Under the pieces are notes generated by a model. It was not told where the DNA came from. It searched no databases and saw only the letters and a program-made list of their open reading frames with translations. Positions 38,333 through 51,677 of a stretch of DNA of 64,000 bases are shown here, piece by piece. The stretch is taken from NCBI GenBank assembly GCA_038870975.1, contig JAVZJD010000002.1, forward strand, positions 96,001 to 160,000, in the 5' to 3' direction. The stretch is from Candidatus Bathyarchaeia archaeon (lineage in GTDB: Archaea; Thermoproteota; CALKCG01; B24). Both the position numbers and the translations under genes were made by a program. Numbering within the stretch: the stretch's first letter is position 1; the number at the start of each line of letters is the position of its first letter.

Positions 38333-38361
38333 TTTAACCTCTAGTAGTACTAGAGGTTAAA
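38333..38361 (+). promoter_or_regulatory. Perfect 14-bp inverted repeat, probable AbrB antitoxin operator
   Basis: TTTAACCTCTAGTA-G-TACTAGAGGTTAAA ending on the A of the ATG. Confidence 0.7.
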
Positions 38362-38588
38362 TGAAGGAGATATTAGTGACAAGGAAGGGTCAAGTGACTA
38401 TCCCAGTAGAATACAGGAGGAAGTATAGGATTAGGGAGGGGGTTAAGGTGTTGATAGAAGATATTGGTAATGGCCTCTTGCTTAAACCAGTTCCTAGCTT
38501 AGAGGAGCAGGCTGGGATTGACGCTGGGAAGTATGATGTTAAAGAGCTGAAGAAATTGCTTGACCGGATGCGTGAAGAGTGGCGTTGA
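38361..38588 (+). CDS. AbrB/MazE-family antitoxin
   Basis: VTRKGQVTIPVEYRRKY.I.EG motif. Confidence 0.9.
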   Translation: MKEILVTRKGQVTIPVEYRRKYRIREGVKVLIEDIGNGLLLKPVPSLEEQAGIDAGKYDVKELKKLLDRMREEWR

Positions 38589-38998
38589 GAGCGGTCTTGG
38601 ATACAAGGTTCTACTTCTCATATTACAATCCAGAGAATGGAGAAGTTGCTAGTTGGACCAGAAGTATTGTTCAGGGTATATTGAAGGGAGAACTTAAGGT
38701 AGCTTCATCTGTGATTACGATTGCTGAGCTTTATGGTACTATGGGAAGGTTGGTTGGAATGGATGCTGTGAAGTTGAGGATCGCTTCTAGTAAAGCTTCG
38801 AATATACTATTCATCCCTATAACCGAGGATATAGCCCATATTGCCGGGGAAATCACCTTAAGAACTCCGAAAATTCCATTAGCTGACGCTATAATTGCTG
38901 CAACAGCCTTAATTCACGCCCATGGAGTTGTAGTTACAGATGATGAACACTTTAAACTCGTAAAAGGCATCGAGACAGTATGGTTAAAGAGTATTTAA
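38579..38998 (+). CDS. VapC/PIN toxin
   Basis: VLDT, TIAE, LADAIIAATA, VTDDEHF. Confidence 0.9.
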   Translation: MALRAVLDTRFYFSYYNPENGEVASWTRSIVQGILKGELKVASSVITIAELYGTMGRLVGMDAVKLRIASSKASNILFIPITEDIAHIAGEITLRTPKIPLADAIIAATALIHAHGVVVTDDEHFKLVKGIETVWLKSI

Positions 38999-39352: not shown

Positions 39353-39376
39353 TGGGGCCGCTGAGATTTGAACCCA
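39353..39376 (-). repeat. att-like copy of the tRNA-Pro 3' end
   Basis: TGGGGCCGCTGAGATTTGAACCCA matches 51603-51626 at 23/24 nt. Confidence 0.85.
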
Positions 39377-39879
39377 TAACATCAACGCATGGAGAAATCC
39401 CCCGCAAAACCCCCTATTTTTTCTTCTACGAGTCTGCCGTTAGGCTACCTCCCGTAGGATGGATTCTTCAGCCGGATTGTTTAGTAGTATTCAGGTTTAA
39501 TATATGTGGGGTGGAAGTTAGGGGGAGGATAAATATAGCCGCCTTCTGGCACGGCTATATTTTAACGTCATCAAACTCCATACATAGAGGCGTTAAACTC
39601 TCCAACGCAATAGCCATGTATAAAGCTGGCAGAAAATTCGGAGTATATGTAAAACGATAGTAGGTTTGTGGAAGGAATATGCCGTCGACAAGTTTTTTCT
39701 ATCCATTCTAAATGTTCCTTTTTTAATTTTTACCTGGGAATTTGCATTGGGAGTGCTGTCTGTTTCAATAATTATTCAGCCTAATACAAGTGTTTGTGAA
39801 GGCTTTGTAAACGGTATTATGAGCTTAAGTATGGGTCTATAGTTTTAGCCCTTGTCAAGGTTAGGGTTGAAGGTGGAGG

Positions 39880-39945
39880 CTTCACGCTGAGCTGGACCTG
39901 CAACCTGGCTGAACAATGCCATAACGAAGAGTGCTTCTACGCTAA
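39880..39945 (+). repeat. 66-bp homologous segment, inverted copy at 45769-45834
   Basis: 53/66 identity by manual alignment; both read FTLSWTCN.....EECFYAK. Confidence 0.8.
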
Positions 39946-40129
39946 GTCTAGATCCATAGTTTAGAGTATGATTGTCAGGTTGGTTAAGCTTAAATGGTGA
40001 ATACTTGAGATTATTTATTGAAGGCTATGGTTAAGTGTCCAGCTGCGGTATGGATGTTAGTCCTCATTCTCATATTTTGAGGGGATTAGTTTTAAATATG
40101 GTTAAAGGGTAACTATTACTTGACCTATA

Positions 40130-40330
40130 TTGGCTAAGTGTCCTGGTTGTGGCTTTGAAGTAGAGTCTTCGAAAGAGTGGACTTATGGTCCTAAGGGTCG
40201 TAAAGGTCCAACGTTTCAAGTGCAGGCCTTTAAATGCCCCAGCTGCGGCTTACAATTCCGAAACTACCTTCAAGAAGGCCGGGTTAAATTCACCCTGGCT
40301 TTAAGAGAGGGCAACTTTAGAAAAGTATAG
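40130..40330 (+). CDS. Cren7-like small chromatin protein with zinc-ribbon cysteines
   Basis: KEWTYGPKGRKG...FKCPSCG..FR resembles Cren7 W.LAPKGRKG..LF.DP..G.YFR; two CxxC; TATA-like TTTTAAATA upstream. Confidence 0.65.
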   Translation: MAKCPGCGFEVESSKEWTYGPKGRKGPTFQVQAFKCPSCGLQFRNYLQEGRVKFTLALREGNFRKV

Positions 40331-40442
40331 CTTCCTCCCTTTGACGTATAACTGAGCAATTCATTCAGTAATCTAGAAGCCTATTGGAAATGTGTACGCA
40401 AGAATACTACTTAACTACCCCTAACTGCTACTTTTCATTTGA

Positions 40443-40479
40443 AATTGATCGATCTGTTTTTAAGCGGCTACGATCAATT
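40443..40479 (+). promoter_or_regulatory. TATA box flanked by a 9-bp inverted repeat (putative operator)
   Basis: AATTGATCG (40443-51) ... TTTTTAAG ... CGATCAATT (40471-79), ending 15 nt before ATG at 40495. Confidence 0.65.
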
Positions 40480-40494
40480 CTATTTTTGAGGTTT

Positions 40495-40698
40495 ATGTCC
40501 CGACGTCGTTATTCTAAGCCTGCCCGTGAGATCGTACTGGATTTTCTGAGGAGCGCCAGTAGACCTGTTGGATTAGGCGAGATCGTCAAGAGCACGGGCA
40601 TAGCGTACAATACTGTTAGAGGTCGTCTCTACGAGCTTAAGAAGAAGGGGCTTGTGAAGAGAACATCTGATGGATGGGTTGAAGTGAATGCGCCATGA
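40495..40698 (+). CDS. Small winged-helix regulator (controller-like) upstream of the DNA MTase
   Basis: MSRRRYSKPAREIVLDFL...LGEIVKSTGIAYNTVRGRLYELKKKGLV; ATG 40495 preferred over the ORF-track start; ATGA overlap with the MTase. Confidence 0.8.
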   Translation: MSRRRYSKPAREIVLDFLRSASRPVGLGEIVKSTGIAYNTVRGRLYELKKKGLVKRTSDGWVEVNAP

Positions 40699-41696
40699 GT
40701 TTTGCAATCACCAACGAGAGGAAGAGTAAGTACATCCCGATGAGACTCGTCACGCTGGAGGAGTATTTAGAGTACGTTAAAAGCCATAGCGTCGTACGCA
40801 TAGAGGATGAAGAAATAGCCATAGGAAGGCCGTATAGGATTGAGAAGTATCAGCCCGATGAATTCACCCTTGAAAAGACGACTGTATGGTCTTTCCCAGA
40901 TAGGGGCGACTGGGCTACGCATAGAGGCGACTACAGGGGTAATTGGGCTCCTCAGATAGCTAGAAACCTCATCCTACGCTATAGTAAGCCTGGCGAACTA
41001 GTCTTAGACCAGATGTGTGGAGGAGGAACAACACTGGTGGAGTGTAAGCTTCTAAGCCGTAATGCCATAGGCGTAGATATAAACTATGAAGCCGTCATAC
41101 TAAGCCTCGACAGGCTGAACTTCACGTACAGACCCCTAGACCAGGACTATAGAGAGCCCGACGTAAAGGTATACCATGGGGATGCTAGAAACCTAAATCT
41201 GATCGAAGACGAATCTGTAGACTTGATAGCTACCCATCCACCATATGCAAACATAATCCCATACAGTAAGAGCAGGAGGGTGGAGGGCGACCTATCACAG
41301 GTCTACAGCCTAGAGGAGTACCTGGAGGGTATGCGTGAAATAGCCATGGAAAGCTTCAGAGTTTTAAAGCCTGGAAGATTCTGCGCCATACTGATAGGCG
41401 ACACCAGGAAGCATAGACACTACGTTCCAATAGCCTTCAGAGTCATGCAGCAGTTTCTAGACGTAGGATTCATACTGAGGGAGGACATAATCAAAGTCCA
41501 ATGGCATACTAAGACGACTGGTAGGAAGTGGGCTGGCCTAGCTAAGACGGCTGAAGAATGCTGGGTTGAAAAGCCGCAGGACAAACGCTACTGGACGGAC
41601 TTCTACCTGATCAGCCACGAACACCTATTCGTATTTAGAAAGCCGAGTAGCGGCGAAGAAAACGAAGAGTATAGGGATAGTATGAAGTGGTGGTAA
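40695..41696 (+). CDS. Amino (N4-C/N6-A) DNA methyltransferase
   Basis: DQMCGGGTT SAM motif, GDAR, ATHPPY catalytic motif, LKPG..CAILIGD, HEHLFVFRK. Confidence 0.85.
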   Translation: MSFAITNERKSKYIPMRLVTLEEYLEYVKSHSVVRIEDEEIAIGRPYRIEKYQPDEFTLEKTTVWSFPDRGDWATHRGDYRGNWAPQIARNLILRYSKPGELVLDQMCGGGTTLVECKLLSRNAIGVDINYEAVILSLDRLNFTYRPLDQDYREPDVKVYHGDARNLNLIEDESVDLIATHPPYANIIPYSKSRRVEGDLSQVYSLEEYLEGMREIAMESFRVLKPGRFCAILIGDTRKHRHYVPIAFRVMQQFLDVGFILREDIIKVQWHTKTTGRKWAGLAKTAEECWVEKPQDKRYWTDFYLISHEHLFVFRKPSSGEENEEYRDSMKWW

Positions 41697-42340
41697 ATAT
41701 CGTGAGAATGCGTAGGGAGCCCAGCTGGCTTAAGTATAAAGTTCTCGTGGATAAGGCCATAGTTGAAGAGAACTACATCGATGGAACCGAGGCTGTTGTC
41801 GACCCCCTACCGCATCCAGACGACGTAAGGACTATTCTAGAACAGCATTTCAAAGTTCACAGCAATAGGAGCTTCAGAGTGATACTGGTCGAAGACTATG
41901 CGGATTACAAAGTGTTCATTCAGATACCTGATGGAAAGTCTGAGTACGACTTCTACGTTTGGCGTGCCATATTTGAACGTGGGAAACCTGTAGATGTGAA
42001 GGTTCCGACGCACGACGACTTAGCCGTCTTCTTCATAGAGCTTAAATCCAAACACGAAGACTTAGAGGAGTACCTGATAAATGCCGTTGTAAAACTGATC
42101 CACCACAACTACAGATGGGGAGTCCCTAGGATAGTCTCAAAGTACTTTAACAACCTCAACGATGAGCTGAAGGGTGAAGTTGGAAAATTCCTATCGACGC
42201 TTAAATGGATAGCGCTCCAAGAAGATATAAACTACCCGCCTAAAGAGAGGAAGATAGGCTCCAAGTATACTCTAGCGGTCTACGCTCTACTAGAGGCAGG
42301 ATTCACAATGAGCGAGATAAGAAGAGTCATCAGATTCTAA
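41687..42340 (+). CDS. Hypothetical protein (candidate endonuclease subunit), paralogue of 42396-42950
   Basis: Overlaps the MTase; KSEYDFYV, PTH, LKWIALQEDINY motifs. Confidence 0.7.
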   Translation: MVVNIVRMRREPSWLKYKVLVDKAIVEENYIDGTEAVVDPLPHPDDVRTILEQHFKVHSNRSFRVILVEDYADYKVFIQIPDGKSEYDFYVWRAIFERGKPVDVKVPTHDDLAVFFIELKSKHEDLEEYLINAVVKLIHHNYRWGVPRIVSKYFNNLNDELKGEVGKFLSTLKWIALQEDINYPPKERKIGSKYTLAVYALLEAGFTMSEIRRVIRF

Positions 42341-42395
42341 ACCCGTCAGATAGAGCTGAAGCAACATATGAACAGTTGAAGGAGGATGTAAACAT

Positions 42396-42950
42396 ATGGT
42401 TAGAAGCGTTGCAATCGGACAGATGGTAGGAGGTAAAAAAGTTCTAGCTGCTGTAAATTTATCGAACGGTTGGCAAGTGGTTAAGACAGAAGACAAAAAA
42501 TCCCCACGAGATTTCAAAGTTAAGGTAATAAACCCTCAGCATCCAAAAGGACTGACGGTTAAACATGCTCACTTCGCCATCGACTTTTACGGAAAACTCT
42601 GTCAAGATGAGGAAAAGGCTATTAAAGTGCTCGAAGCAATCGGCGAAGTATGGCGTGGAAGAAGCGTAAAAGATGTAGTAGAGGAATATGAGCCGCAAAT
42701 CCAGGAGCTATCTGGCTATCCCTTAGAATACATACTACATGCTCTAAATTGGATATTAGAACAAGAGGATATCAATTTCAAAGGGCGCTCTGAAGAAAAG
42801 CAGAAAGAGATTGATGAAAAAATAAAGAAGTTAGGCATTGAGCCTCCGAAGGATAGAAAGGGAAGCCAGCTTGAAATAGCCCTCCTCTGCGATATAGCCA
42901 GCGGTACACATCCTGTTGAAGCTTTCTATAGGGCGGGATTAAAAATCTAA
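42396..42950 (+). CDS. Hypothetical protein (candidate endonuclease subunit), paralogue of 41687-42340
   Basis: KSPRDFKV, VKH, LNWILEQEDINF motifs; GGAGG RBS upstream. Confidence 0.7.
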   Translation: MVRSVAIGQMVGGKKVLAAVNLSNGWQVVKTEDKKSPRDFKVKVINPQHPKGLTVKHAHFAIDFYGKLCQDEEKAIKVLEAIGEVWRGRSVKDVVEEYEPQIQELSGYPLEYILHALNWILEQEDINFKGRSEEKQKEIDEKIKKLGIEPPKDRKGSQLEIALLCDIASGTHPVEAFYRAGLKI

Positions 42951-43087: not shown

Positions 43088-45133
43088 TTGCGAGGAATGA
43101 AATATCTGGTTAATATGGGTAAAGAAGTTACTGAAGAAAAGATCACAGTTAAAACATTGGTTTGGGTGGCTGTTTTAAGCGTTGCCGTGGCGTTTTTCTG
43201 GAATTTTTTCGAAGCTCTTTTACCGCCTTTGGCTCGGTGTACTCAGAGGGTTAATGCTTTACTTACACCGGTAGACTTTGTAGGCGGTCCGTTCGTCGCC
43301 TTCTTGATTGTTATGGTTCTTCAGTATTTCCAGCCTCTGCGGAAATATCTTAGTAGAACGAACCTAGCGTATCTCAGCATCGCTATGATAACTGTGTCGT
43401 TCTATACGCATTTTGCAACAATAGAGACTAGGAATACGTGTTTCCTCTTGGCTAGACCTTTGATTCCGGAATCTGTTGGTAGATACGTACCATGGTTTGT
43501 ATCGCTTCCATCAGAAGTTGCTGAACTGCTCATCAGAGGTACGGGTAATCTAGGGGTTCTACCATGGGATGTTTTGCTTCCGGCGATTCTATGGAGGTTC
43601 CTACTAATCGCTCTTTTTGCTGGTGTTGGTATAAGCGTAGTCAACATCTTCCGCCGTAGTTGGATAGATGTCGAAAAACTCCCATTCCCATACGTCGACG
43701 TAGTCCAGACTTGTCTAATAAACGTCGAAGGCATGATGAAGAAAGAATGGCCATCTAAGACGCGTTTCCTTATTGGGATGCTTGTCGGGTTTTTACTCGG
43801 CATACCTTTAAGTGGTGCAACACTTTTCCCATGGTTTCCAGACCTCTACATGTGGCGTACGGATACATGCCCTCCAGGGTCTCACTGGGTAACTCCCGCA
43901 GATGTGCCGTGGCACTTAGGTATTGGTAAGCATCCACTCATGTATCCGATAATGCTTCTAACGCCTATCCACGCTCTATTTAGCATACTGTTCTACACAC
44001 TTGTCATGGAAATAGCGCTTTTCATAGCCTACTATGGCTTCGGCTATTACACGGGTATGCTTGGATCAGGCTTCTGTGGAAGAAACTGGTGTACAGGTCC
44101 AACCGTTGCACCACCGCTTTACCTTTTCACGGTATGCTCTGGTGCTGCACTCGGCTTCTTCATAATAACTGTACTATTAGAGCGACGCTATATCGTGGAA
44201 ACTTTGAGGCTTGCCTTTAGAAGAACTGATGTTAAGGTCGAAGCTGGTGAACCCATGAGCTACAGATATTCTTGGATAATGCTTATGGCGTTCTCTGTAT
44301 TGGTTATAGTGTTCTTTATGTATACTGGGTTGAGCCCATGGCTTTCCTTTGTAGTATTGGTTTCAACCATCATAATATGGTTCACTTTGACGCCTATATG
44401 GGGTCGAACGTTTATCACATTACAACCGTGCTACTGGCTTTCCCCAGCTATGATAAGGCTCATGGCATATCCAACATGGTACTTACCAGAGATAACATCG
44501 ACCGATTTAATACTTGTACCTCTTTTAAGTGCGGAATGGATCGGGCATACTGCAGGTGGAGGCTATGAAGGCGGAGGAGGCTTCGGCACGCCGTTCTTCG
44601 TATCTGCCTCGACTTATAGGATTGCCAGCCTCAACAGTATACATCCGAGGAACGCGTTGAAAATCATGGTTGTTTCAATGCTTATAGCATCGTTCATCAC
44701 GTGCTTCAACCAAGTGGCTATTCCAGGCCTATTCGGACATGCAACATTAGGCTACAATCTGTGGGACTATTCACAGGAGCCTGAATGGCATTTCTGGACA
44801 ATACCGTACAATGGGCCGATGGTCGAGGGATGGCTTCATCTAAGCGTCGGCTTCATCCTAATGGTTGTAGGAAGATACTTATACACGAGGTTCCTATGGA
44901 TGCCAGATCCATTGCTAGCGTTAGTTGCATGGAGCTGGGAAATATCCATTGACGGATTTTGGCTTGCATGTCTAGTAGCATGGATAGTGAAGTCCGCAAT
45001 ACTAAGGATAGGCGGAAGCAAACTCTACGAAGAATGGGTTGTACCATTCGTTGGAGGCTTCACACTAGGATATGCTTTAGAAGTCCTAATAACAGCATCA
45101 ACAAGCTTCATACTATTCCCACGTATACTTTAA
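43088..45133 (+). CDS. Multi-pass membrane protein, OPT/DUF6785-like putative peptide transporter
   Basis: Many TM helices; RRSWIDVEKLPFP, EPMSYR, W.VK..ILRIGG.KLY...PF.GGF.LG. Confidence 0.75.
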   Translation: MRGMKYLVNMGKEVTEEKITVKTLVWVAVLSVAVAFFWNFFEALLPPLARCTQRVNALLTPVDFVGGPFVAFLIVMVLQYFQPLRKYLSRTNLAYLSIAMITVSFYTHFATIETRNTCFLLARPLIPESVGRYVPWFVSLPSEVAELLIRGTGNLGVLPWDVLLPAILWRFLLIALFAGVGISVVNIFRRSWIDVEKLPFPYVDVVQTCLINVEGMMKKEWPSKTRFLIGMLVGFLLGIPLSGATLFPWFPDLYMWRTDTCPPGSHWVTPADVPWHLGIGKHPLMYPIMLLTPIHALFSILFYTLVMEIALFIAYYGFGYYTGMLGSGFCGRNWCTGPTVAPPLYLFTVCSGAALGFFIITVLLERRYIVETLRLAFRRTDVKVEAGEPMSYRYSWIMLMAFSVLVIVFFMYTGLSPWLSFVVLVSTIIIWFTLTPIWGRTFITLQPCYWLSPAMIRLMAYPTWYLPEITSTDLILVPLLSAEWIGHTAGGGYEGGGGFGTPFFVSASTYRIASLNSIHPRNALKIMVVSMLIASFITCFNQVAIPGLFGHATLGYNLWDYSQEPEWHFWTIPYNGPMVEGWLHLSVGFILMVVGRYLYTRFLWMPDPLLALVAWSWEISIDGFWLACLVAWIVKSAILRIGGSKLYEEWVVPFVGGFTLGYALEVLITASTSFILFPRIL

Positions 45134-45495: not shown

Positions 45496-45768
45496 AGCTG
45501 CTATGAAAACAGTTGCGGCTGAATTATCTAAGGCTCTGGTGCAGGGTCTAGTCTAGCATCTTCCATATTTGCCCATTCATTTATATAAGATGCATTTATC
45601 CATGAAGCTGTTCCAAGCAACCTAGAGTGCATAAACGCATAAGATAAACATTATTTACTATAAAAGGGCTATGGTTGAGACAGCTGAAATAGTTACTCTA
45701 TGCTCTCAGAGCTCATACCTAAATTGAGCTTCACGGAAAGAGGGCATAACTGCCTTACGGATTTAAAT

Positions 45769-45834
45769 TTAGCGTAGAAGCACTCTTCACTGTAGTAGTG
45801 CTCGACTGGATTGCAAGTCCAGCTCAGCGTGAAG
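45769..45834 (-). repeat. Inverted copy of the 39880-39945 segment
   Basis: See 39880-39945. Confidence 0.8.
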
Positions 45835-46585
45835 TCTACGTCTACGCTCACCACTTCCATCAGTAAAGCCTTCACGTACACCAGTATTGGGCTGAATCGC
45901 TATCAAAATGGGCGACACCCAACATACATTGGAAAACCTTAATCTTTTAAAATTTGAACTCTTCCAAATTTGCTTTATTCCGAGTGTTTTGAATATACGC
46001 TCTATGGGGGAGCCCTATTTAGCAATATCCATGTTTGAAAGGGGTCCTATTAGGTAGTGTATGAGTCATGGGAAGTCTACTCCGTATAATGAGTAGGCTA
46101 AGACTTGACTTAAACCTTCAAAGTACTGAAACTTCTTCACAACCATTATCTTAAGCTTTGTGATTTCTTCCATCACAGAAACCACATACAGATCACCTGT
46201 CCAGCGGATTCTTGGGTAAAAGTTTGGCGATGTTTTAAAATTTTGTTAAAGCTACTATTATGTTGCAACCTTTATATTCATTACTATGTCTTTAAAGAAT
46301 TTTTCACAGTCTTCAATATATGGTTCTCATCTTAGTGCATTAAGCTACAGTTGACGCATCTCTATTCGCTCTTAATTATCTTGTAGTTCCCTCCTAGGGG
46401 AAACGGCAGGAGCTTATATGTTTTAACGTTTCCATCCTTTTAGCGTAGCTTGAGTATGACTACATTGCTGTATTTGGCCATAAGTGTGCGAAGACCTCTT
46501 CAAGCTTCTCGGTCTCATCTCTACCGGAAACGGTCACACGAACCATTACACTACTATTTAAGGCTTCTATCTAAAGCTGGACGTT

Positions 46586-51599: not shown

Positions 51600-51677
51600 T
51601 GGTGGGGCCGCTGGGATTTGAACCCAGGACCGCCAGCGCCCCAGGCTGGTATCCTAGCCATGCTAGACGACGGCCCC
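51600..51677 (-). tRNA. tRNA-Pro(GGG), intronless, CCA encoded
   Basis: GGGGCCG acceptor stem, CCAGC-CTGGGGC-GCTGG anticodon arm, GGTTCAAATCC T arm, ends ACCA. Confidence 0.97.

Follow-up and report, generated by a model that had tools for sequence, protein, structure and literature searches.

A probable mobile type II-like restriction-modification module with two paralogous candidate effectors of an unannotated family in a Bathyarchaeia archaeon

Introduction

Restriction endonucleases are built on few folds, namely PD-(D/E)xK, HNH, GIY-YIG, PLD and the PabI half-pipe. Among restriction-modification (RM) systems of type II, the type IIP systems with a controller (C) protein, such as PvuII, AhdI and Esp1396I, combine a small autoregulatory DNA-binding protein and an inverted-repeat operator at its own promoter with one amino-methyltransferase and one small partner, in a compact, partly overlapping operon carried on mobile DNA. 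A locus resembling them in these respects, as far as the operator and autoregulation can be read from sequence, was found in a 64,000-nt stretch of a Candidatus Bathyarchaeia archaeon genome (hereafter the window; host genome G000, 92.9%-complete). It comprises a candidate operator, a winged helix-turn-helix (wHTH) gene, a DNA amino-methyltransferase gene and two paralogous genes, ORF3 and ORF4.

We propose that this locus is probably a mobile type II-like RM module in which ORF3 is the restriction component and ORF4 a second, independent effector under the same methyltransferase. An initial annotation had described the locus as an RM-like cassette, and this description is borne out by the controller-like wHTH protein, the operator, the amino-methyltransferase and the linkage of the partner genes to that methyltransferase family.

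Results and Discussion

Organization of the cassette

Positions 40130-42950 of the window contain five co-oriented open reading frames (ORFs) according to the ORF list, and all features of the cassette lie on the + strand. The candidate operator (40443..40479) is a 9-nt perfect inverted repeat with GATC in each arm around the TATA-like TTTTTAAG. It is followed by the genes of a 67-aa wHTH protein (40495..40698; Pfam HTH_IclR, 2.4e-6), a controller-like regulator, and of a 333-aa DNA amino-methyltransferase (40695..41696; Pfam N6_N4_Mtase, 1.3e-25). Next come ORF3 (41687..42340; 217 aa, with a probable start at M8, position 41708, that gives 210 aa), a candidate restriction endonuclease of an unannotated family, and ORF4 (42396..42950; 184 aa), an intact sister-family member of the ORF3 superfamily.

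The start of the wHTH gene was placed at ATG 40495, which gives a 67-aa product among homologues of 62-68 aa; a 104-aa ORF starting at 40384 was rejected as too long against these homologues. The wHTH stop and the methyltransferase start overlap by 4 nt. Whether the methyltransferase gene and ORF3 overlap hinges on the choice of the ORF3 start: the homologues begin at the position corresponding to M8, and with that start the two genes would be 11 nt apart. The initial annotation had listed four co-oriented, intact genes of which the first three overlap: the orientation, the intactness and the first overlap stand, and the second overlap depends on the start chosen. ORF4 lies 55 nt behind ORF3 in tandem, with no evident terminator between them and with a GGAGG sequence 10 nt upstream of its ATG.

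Linkage to the methyltransferase, distribution and mobility

Relatives of both partner genes (loci are designated here by L numbers) are found next to the same family of methyltransferases, which share a THPPY motif IV. Such an enzyme adjoins the ORF3 relatives in 25 of 28 genome loci, in either gene order, and the 11 ORF4-type genome loci of the phylum with remaining flanks are all paired with the methyltransferase or its remains. In metagenomes, a methyltransferase gene is present within 450 nt of ORF4 in 63 of 80 loci, in all four orientations (21 tandem methyltransferase-first, 6 tandem ORF4-first, 18 divergent and 18 convergent), and the remaining 17 are mostly short contigs or carry one intervening gene. 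The association of the homologues with this methyltransferase family, which the initial annotation had suggested testing, is thus tight. In three loci (L134:3287-4966, L149:3526-5190 and L157:3741-5789), a large ORF (554-682 aa) separates ORF4 from the methyltransferase gene.

The distribution of the module is patchy. Of 401 genomes sampled from the phylum, 15 carry ORF3 and 22 carry ORF4, with intact copies in 8 and 9, respectively; among these genomes, the two are found together only in that of the window. Within the genus of the window, the cassette is present in some genomes and absent from others. Its hosts include archaea (Thermoproteota, Bathyarchaeia, Nitrososphaeria, Methanomethylicia, Archaeoglobi, Thermococci, Thermoplasmatales and Aenigmatarchaeota) as well as the bacteria Thermocrinis and Caldipriscus, and every ORF3 or ORF4 homologue with a named source comes from a thermophilic taxon. 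Searches of plasmid and phage records and of viral contigs yielded no relatives. The homology of the window to L001 is confined to 40446-42336 and that to L006 to 39687-42341, amid unrelated flanks, and the stretch common to relatives runs from the operator to the ORF3 stop. Several loci (L012, L023, L025, L028, L039 and L045) have an intact methyltransferase gene and a broken partner; a methyltransferase that outlasts its partner is the usual direction of RM decay.

As in type II systems, a separate partner gene is thus consistently found beside the methyltransferase gene, the order of the two varies, and the distribution is mobile and patchy. Linkage in all four orientations, together with a patchy distribution that crosses from archaea to bacteria, is the signature of a type II RM system with an unrecognised endonuclease. 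The reading of the locus as a type II RM module with a dedicated regulator, in which ORF3 would take the endonuclease slot, has good support from the genomic context.

The THPPY methyltransferase

The 333-aa protein has the features of a type II DNA methyltransferase. Besides its Pfam match, it matches PADLOC MTase_II model PDLC03376 over its full length and collinearly (3.9e-75), and it carries motif I (DQMCGGGTT) at about residue 105, before motif IV (THPPY) at about residue 180, some 75 residues later. The THPPY sequence is invariant in the 45 relatives examined. The protein aligns in permuted order with PDB 2zie. It is the sole PF01555 match in the 92.9%-complete genome, in which no methyltransferase of PF00145, PF02086 or PF02384 was detected.

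The enzyme of the window belongs to the clade of ORF3 partners and is 91% identical to the enzyme of L006, a locus without ORF4. The methyltransferase tree as a whole clusters by partner type, with 4 label changes compared with 11.5 in shuffles. THPPY methyltransferases matching PDLC03376 are found in 91 of the 401 genomes. At 17 of the 29 loci with the best matches, the gene is an orphan surrounded by housekeeping genes. This share, more than half, suggests that a lineage of epigenetic methyltransferases persists beside the RM-linked ones.

Other arrangements of methyltransferase genes were also seen. A gene for a D12-class (Dam-like) adenine methyltransferase lies immediately upstream of the THPPY methyltransferase gene in the two genomes whose simple methyltransferase-ORF4 modules are the closest (L186:220-1200 and L188:220-1191). 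One locus, L007:3775-6606, shows the converse of one methyltransferase with two paralogues: a single ORF3-type partner accompanies two THPPY methyltransferases, and the wHTH gene is divergent.

The operator and its putative regulator

The presence of an operator, as proposed earlier, could be substantiated. The two arms of the inverted repeat (40443-40451 and 40471-40479) end 16 nt before the wHTH ATG. Six diverged loci (L001, L003, L004, L006, L048 and the window) retain a GATCGATC-type box together with TTTTTAAG ahead of the wHTH gene, with the GATCGATC-like box immediately upstream of TTTTTAAG and a second GATC-bearing box downstream in three of the six. This retention indicates a conserved element and not a chance repeat; we infer that the wHTH protein binds to it.

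Within the E-value limits used, the matches of the wHTH protein in Pfam, NCBIfam, PADLOC and other library scans are all winged-helix families (IclR, Rrf2, MarR, TrmB and Csa3-type), those in PADLOC being of the Csa3/CARF wHTH type, and none of these scans gave an HTH_3/Xre match. By its sequence, the protein would therefore be controller-like, yet not a member of the Xre-type C proteins (five-helix Xre/HTH_3). More than 20 cassettes, covering both partner types, come with a wHTH homologue, whose gene may precede that of the methyltransferase or that of the partner or lie convergently behind the partner.

ORF3 and ORF4 define an unannotated superfamily

ORF3 and ORF4 are related to each other by BLASTP (E 2e-4) over a C-terminal segment with W-I-x-x-QEDIN and RK-GS. 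Comparison of the two family profiles by hhalign gave a probability of 96.7% and an E-value of 4.5e-10 over 135 columns, an overlap that also takes in the KS..DF and conserved His positions. The two proteins are thus divergent paralogues with shared, ordered motifs, as was initially noted from inspection. In the superfamily alignment, which includes two more diverged subfamilies, D88 is invariant and F89, V91, H109, L169, E179, D180 and G191 are near-invariant. The polar set of Asp, His, Glu and Asp pointed out earlier is accordingly found in this alignment as D88, H109, E179 and D180; this core is retained in 106 of 116 members, both window genes included. These four residues likely form the active site, judging from their conservation. 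Diverged members with Gln at the Glu179 position, mostly second paralogues (L103:1122-1685, L104:3241-3963, L142:3362-3949, L153:3875-4453, L050:1480-2040 and L047:1450-1992), may be inactive or functionally distinct variants.

At least 140 homologues of ORF3 were found, all named hypothetical, and the ORF4 family comprises 54 cluster representatives, all unnamed; none in either family has a Pfam domain. Searches of Pfam (with every alignment member), NCBIfam, PADLOC, PHROGs and ESM Atlas, as well as single-sequence and profile searches against PDB sequences, gave no match for ORF3, ORF4 or the diverged subfamilies. Neither protein matched the HNH, GIY-YIG or PLD models at E <= 0.05-0.1 in Pfam, NCBIfam, PADLOC and PHROGs, nor was there a fold match to them. 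A superfamily profile iterated over all fetched loci recovered no further members.

The AlphaFold2 models of ORF3 (pLDDT 91.8, pTM 0.88) and ORF4 (pLDDT 93.5, pTM 0.89) are built alike: a meander of four strands leads into about seven helices, of which the last two appear HTH-like in the secondary-structure output. Neither model matched a PDB fold. The statement that neither protein bears a recognisable nuclease signature thus holds at the level of family libraries, PDB sequences and folds. On these models, a solved structural relative of ORF3 and ORF4 is undetectable, which is not proof of a new fold.

Proposed function of the module

We propose that the RM module rides on a decayed island integrated at tRNA-Pro. 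Its promoter, with a TATA box between two GATC-containing half-sites, would drive the wHTH and THPPY methyltransferase genes, and ORF3 would follow the latter either overlapping it or 11 nt behind it. The ORF3 product (~210 aa) is predicted to consist of a four-stranded beta-meander and then a helical bundle ending in an HTH-like helix pair. We infer that it is a nuclease or a functional equivalent that recognises the site of the methyltransferase and damages DNA lacking that methylation, with Asp88, His109 and Glu179-Asp180 as its putative active site. The sister family of ORF4 elsewhere forms its own two-gene module with a methyltransferase; in the window, ORF4 would have been added beside the ORF3 module and would probably act as a second, independent effector shielded by the same methyltransferase.

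Several points weigh against this proposal. Neither a nuclease nor a glycosylase could be recognised by motif, family or fold, so that genomic context is the sole basis of the catalytic role. A second methyltransferase of the ORF4-cognate clade, or its remnant, was sought to account for ORF4 and not found, and the enzyme of the window shares only ~60% identity with those of the ORF4 type. With a single methyltransferase in the genome and no ORF4-cognate one, an active ORF4 must share specificity and protection with ORF3; we suppose that it is blocked by the same methylation, which needs that shared specificity. Partners without a methyltransferase also occur (L018, L022 and L059), which makes the asymmetry of decay modest. 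Finally, palindrome avoidance is the same with and without the cassette, so that no site could be inferred from it.

The ORF3/ORF4 effector family is nevertheless a credible candidate for a new restriction-enzyme class. A fuller version of this idea, which we put forward tentatively and which may well not hold, is that the superfamily is a new, thermophile-confined structural class of restriction effector, endonuclease or glycosylase, with a beta-meander, a helical bundle and an Asp-His-Glu-Asp centre. It would be modular, one THPPY methyltransferase serving two paralogous effectors, and some members with altered Glu may be heteromeric partners.

Alternative explanations

The initial annotation suggested that the pair forms a heterodimeric nuclease or glycosylase, that is, that ORF3 and ORF4 are different subunits of a restriction enzyme acting on one site. 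We regard this as unlikely. The tandem arrangement described above, the intact core residues of both proteins and the single DNA methyltransferase available for both would agree with it. So would the recurrence of one methyltransferase with two paralogues, which was found in 10 of 113 distinct loci in addition to the window, none of them with two methyltransferases. At several of these loci, Glu179 is replaced by Gln in the second paralogue, which may, from its sequence, be a non-catalytic partner or subunit; both window genes have the full D-H-E-D set. The subunit genes of an obligate heterodimer would, however, always be found together, and a single paralogue is present in ~90% of the 113 loci, which indicates that each family works alone with a methyltransferase. 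The presence of both genes in only 1 of 401 genomes, the clustering of the methyltransferases by partner type and the end of the shared unit at the ORF3 stop argue in the same direction, and an obligate heterodimer of ORF3 and ORF4 is unlikely.

The two-paralogue loci are themselves diverse. ORF3 is paired with ORF4 in L128, L170/L166 and L178, and with O5, a third subfamily of the superfamily, in L010; ORF4 is paired with O5 in L103 and L104 and with other diverged members in L126, L142 and L153. The orientations vary as well, often with the two genes on opposite strands, unlike the operon of a co-evolved subunit pair. Such mixed partners and varied orientations fit better with interchangeable effectors stacked on one protective methyltransferase.

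It seems rather improbable that a second cassette lost its methyltransferase and left ORF4 behind as a relic, without function or silenced, with ORF3 as the sole active effector. ORF4 does lie outside the conserved unit, in a decaying island and with no trace of a cognate-clade methyltransferase, and its family has broken copies at other loci (L039, L043 and L045). Against this, its full-length frame is intact with all family-conserved residues and the upstream GGAGG, and it is 68-76% identical to its nearest relatives, which sit in complete modules with their own methyltransferase (68-70% to copies in such modules); moreover, the same layout is found independently, with both genes intact, in L128, L178 and L010.

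Least probable is a role of the superfamily as a DNA-binding accessory of the methyltransferase (regulator, methylation reader or targeting factor) and not as a nuclease: the missing nuclease fold or motif, the HTH-like C-terminal helices of the models and the persistence of some lone partners with Gln at the conserved Glu (L050) would suit it, but many cassettes already have a dedicated wHTH regulator, the commonness of orphan methyltransferases shows that the enzyme needs no partner and counts against a cofactor role, the (near-)invariance of Asp, His and Glu-Asp across families only 20-30% identical suggests catalysis, and the four orientations, patchiness and cross-domain transfer fit selfish RM modules.

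The island and neighbouring genes

The cassette is located in an integrated island of ~12.3 kb, delimited by a 24-nt direct repeat (0 matches expected by chance). The left border (39353..39376, + strand) is a copy, with 1 mismatch, of the 3' end of tRNA-Pro(GGG); the matching stretch (51603..51626) lies inside the tRNA gene at 51600-51677. This repeat confirms the island context. The island was said to contain many broken genes. Two stretches poor in ORFs (39.0-40.1 kb and 45.2-48.1 kb) and domain matches that are truncated are consistent with this, although the breakage of individual genes was checked only in part. No integrase was seen among the larger island ORFs, which gave matches to PNP_UDP_1, a truncated Methyltransf_25 domain and PIN.

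Upstream of the cassette, a gene for a 66-aa zinc-ribbon protein (40130..40330, + strand) forms part of its context and not of its core; it accompanies the cassette in the nearest relative (L006) only. Directly downstream of ORF4, positions 43088-45133 encode a multi-pass membrane protein of 681 aa that contains DUF6785 and DUF6784 and was not found beside related cassettes. The block of cassette, ORF4 and membrane-protein gene is enclosed by imperfect inverted repeats of ~80-200 nt (39763-39958 and 45756-45908; 77-78% complementary), whose sequence is present as a single copy adjoining the cassette in L006. Just outside the island border, at 38361-38998, genes for a MazE/AbrB-type antitoxin (75 aa) and a PIN-domain toxin (139 aa) overlap in a VapBC-like arrangement.

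Recognition site

The most avoided 4-mer palindromes in genome G000 are GGCC (observed/expected 0.53) and GATC (0.55), and the operator boxes contain GATC. Derivation of a recognition site from palindrome avoidance was rejected, as congeners with and without the cassette share the avoidance profile. Three relatives were sampled for comparison, two of them congeners and the third, G205, from another genus; GATC and CCGG are somewhat lower in G000 than in these.

Significance and comparison with known systems

A further restriction-enzyme fold, if true, would be a real addition to nuclease enzymology, and its thermostable enzymes could be of practical use. Since the family is invisible to PADLOC, Pfam and NCBIfam annotation, the RM content of thermophilic archaea is under-counted. 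The recurrent layout of one methyltransferase and two effectors also raises the question of how several effectors share one protective mark.

A literature search on HPPY methyltransferases and new-fold restriction enzymes returned nothing relevant. The PADLOC model of this methyltransferase family had no match in T. maritima, and its matches in S. acidocaldarius and M. jannaschii were limited to E-values of 1e-5 to 1e-10; with such weak or missing matches, the module could not be tied to the SuaI or Mja systems or to TneDI.

Among described methyltransferases, the Thermus DNA methylase TTHA0409 (PDB 2zie) and the beta-class N4/N6 enzymes (PvuII/RsrI-like) have SAM-binding and (S/D/N)PPY-type catalytic regions that align with those of the window enzyme, which differs from them in the order of motif I before motif IV and in its invariant THPPY. 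The heterodimeric or multi-subunit enzymes BbvCI, Bpu10I and BslI likewise have two related small genes adjoining a methyltransferase function, but their subunit genes always co-occur, whereas the families described here are usually single and their pairings mixed. The R.PabI half-pipe glycosylases are comparable as small proteins (~200-226 aa) partnering an amino-methyltransferase in hyperthermophiles, with no classical nuclease motif and with a fold that was new when found. For ORF3 and ORF4, nevertheless, no PDB chain, those of PabI among them, gave a significant match in sequence or fold, and their predicted architecture is a four-stranded meander with a helical bundle and not an extended sheet. 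Compared with the type IIP systems with a C protein, the regulator of the present module is of the winged-helix type (IclR/MarR/Csa3-like) and not Xre-type, and its gene precedes that of the methyltransferase and not that of the endonuclease. Moreover, the putative endonuclease belongs to no known family, and an extra paralogous effector shares the methyltransferase.

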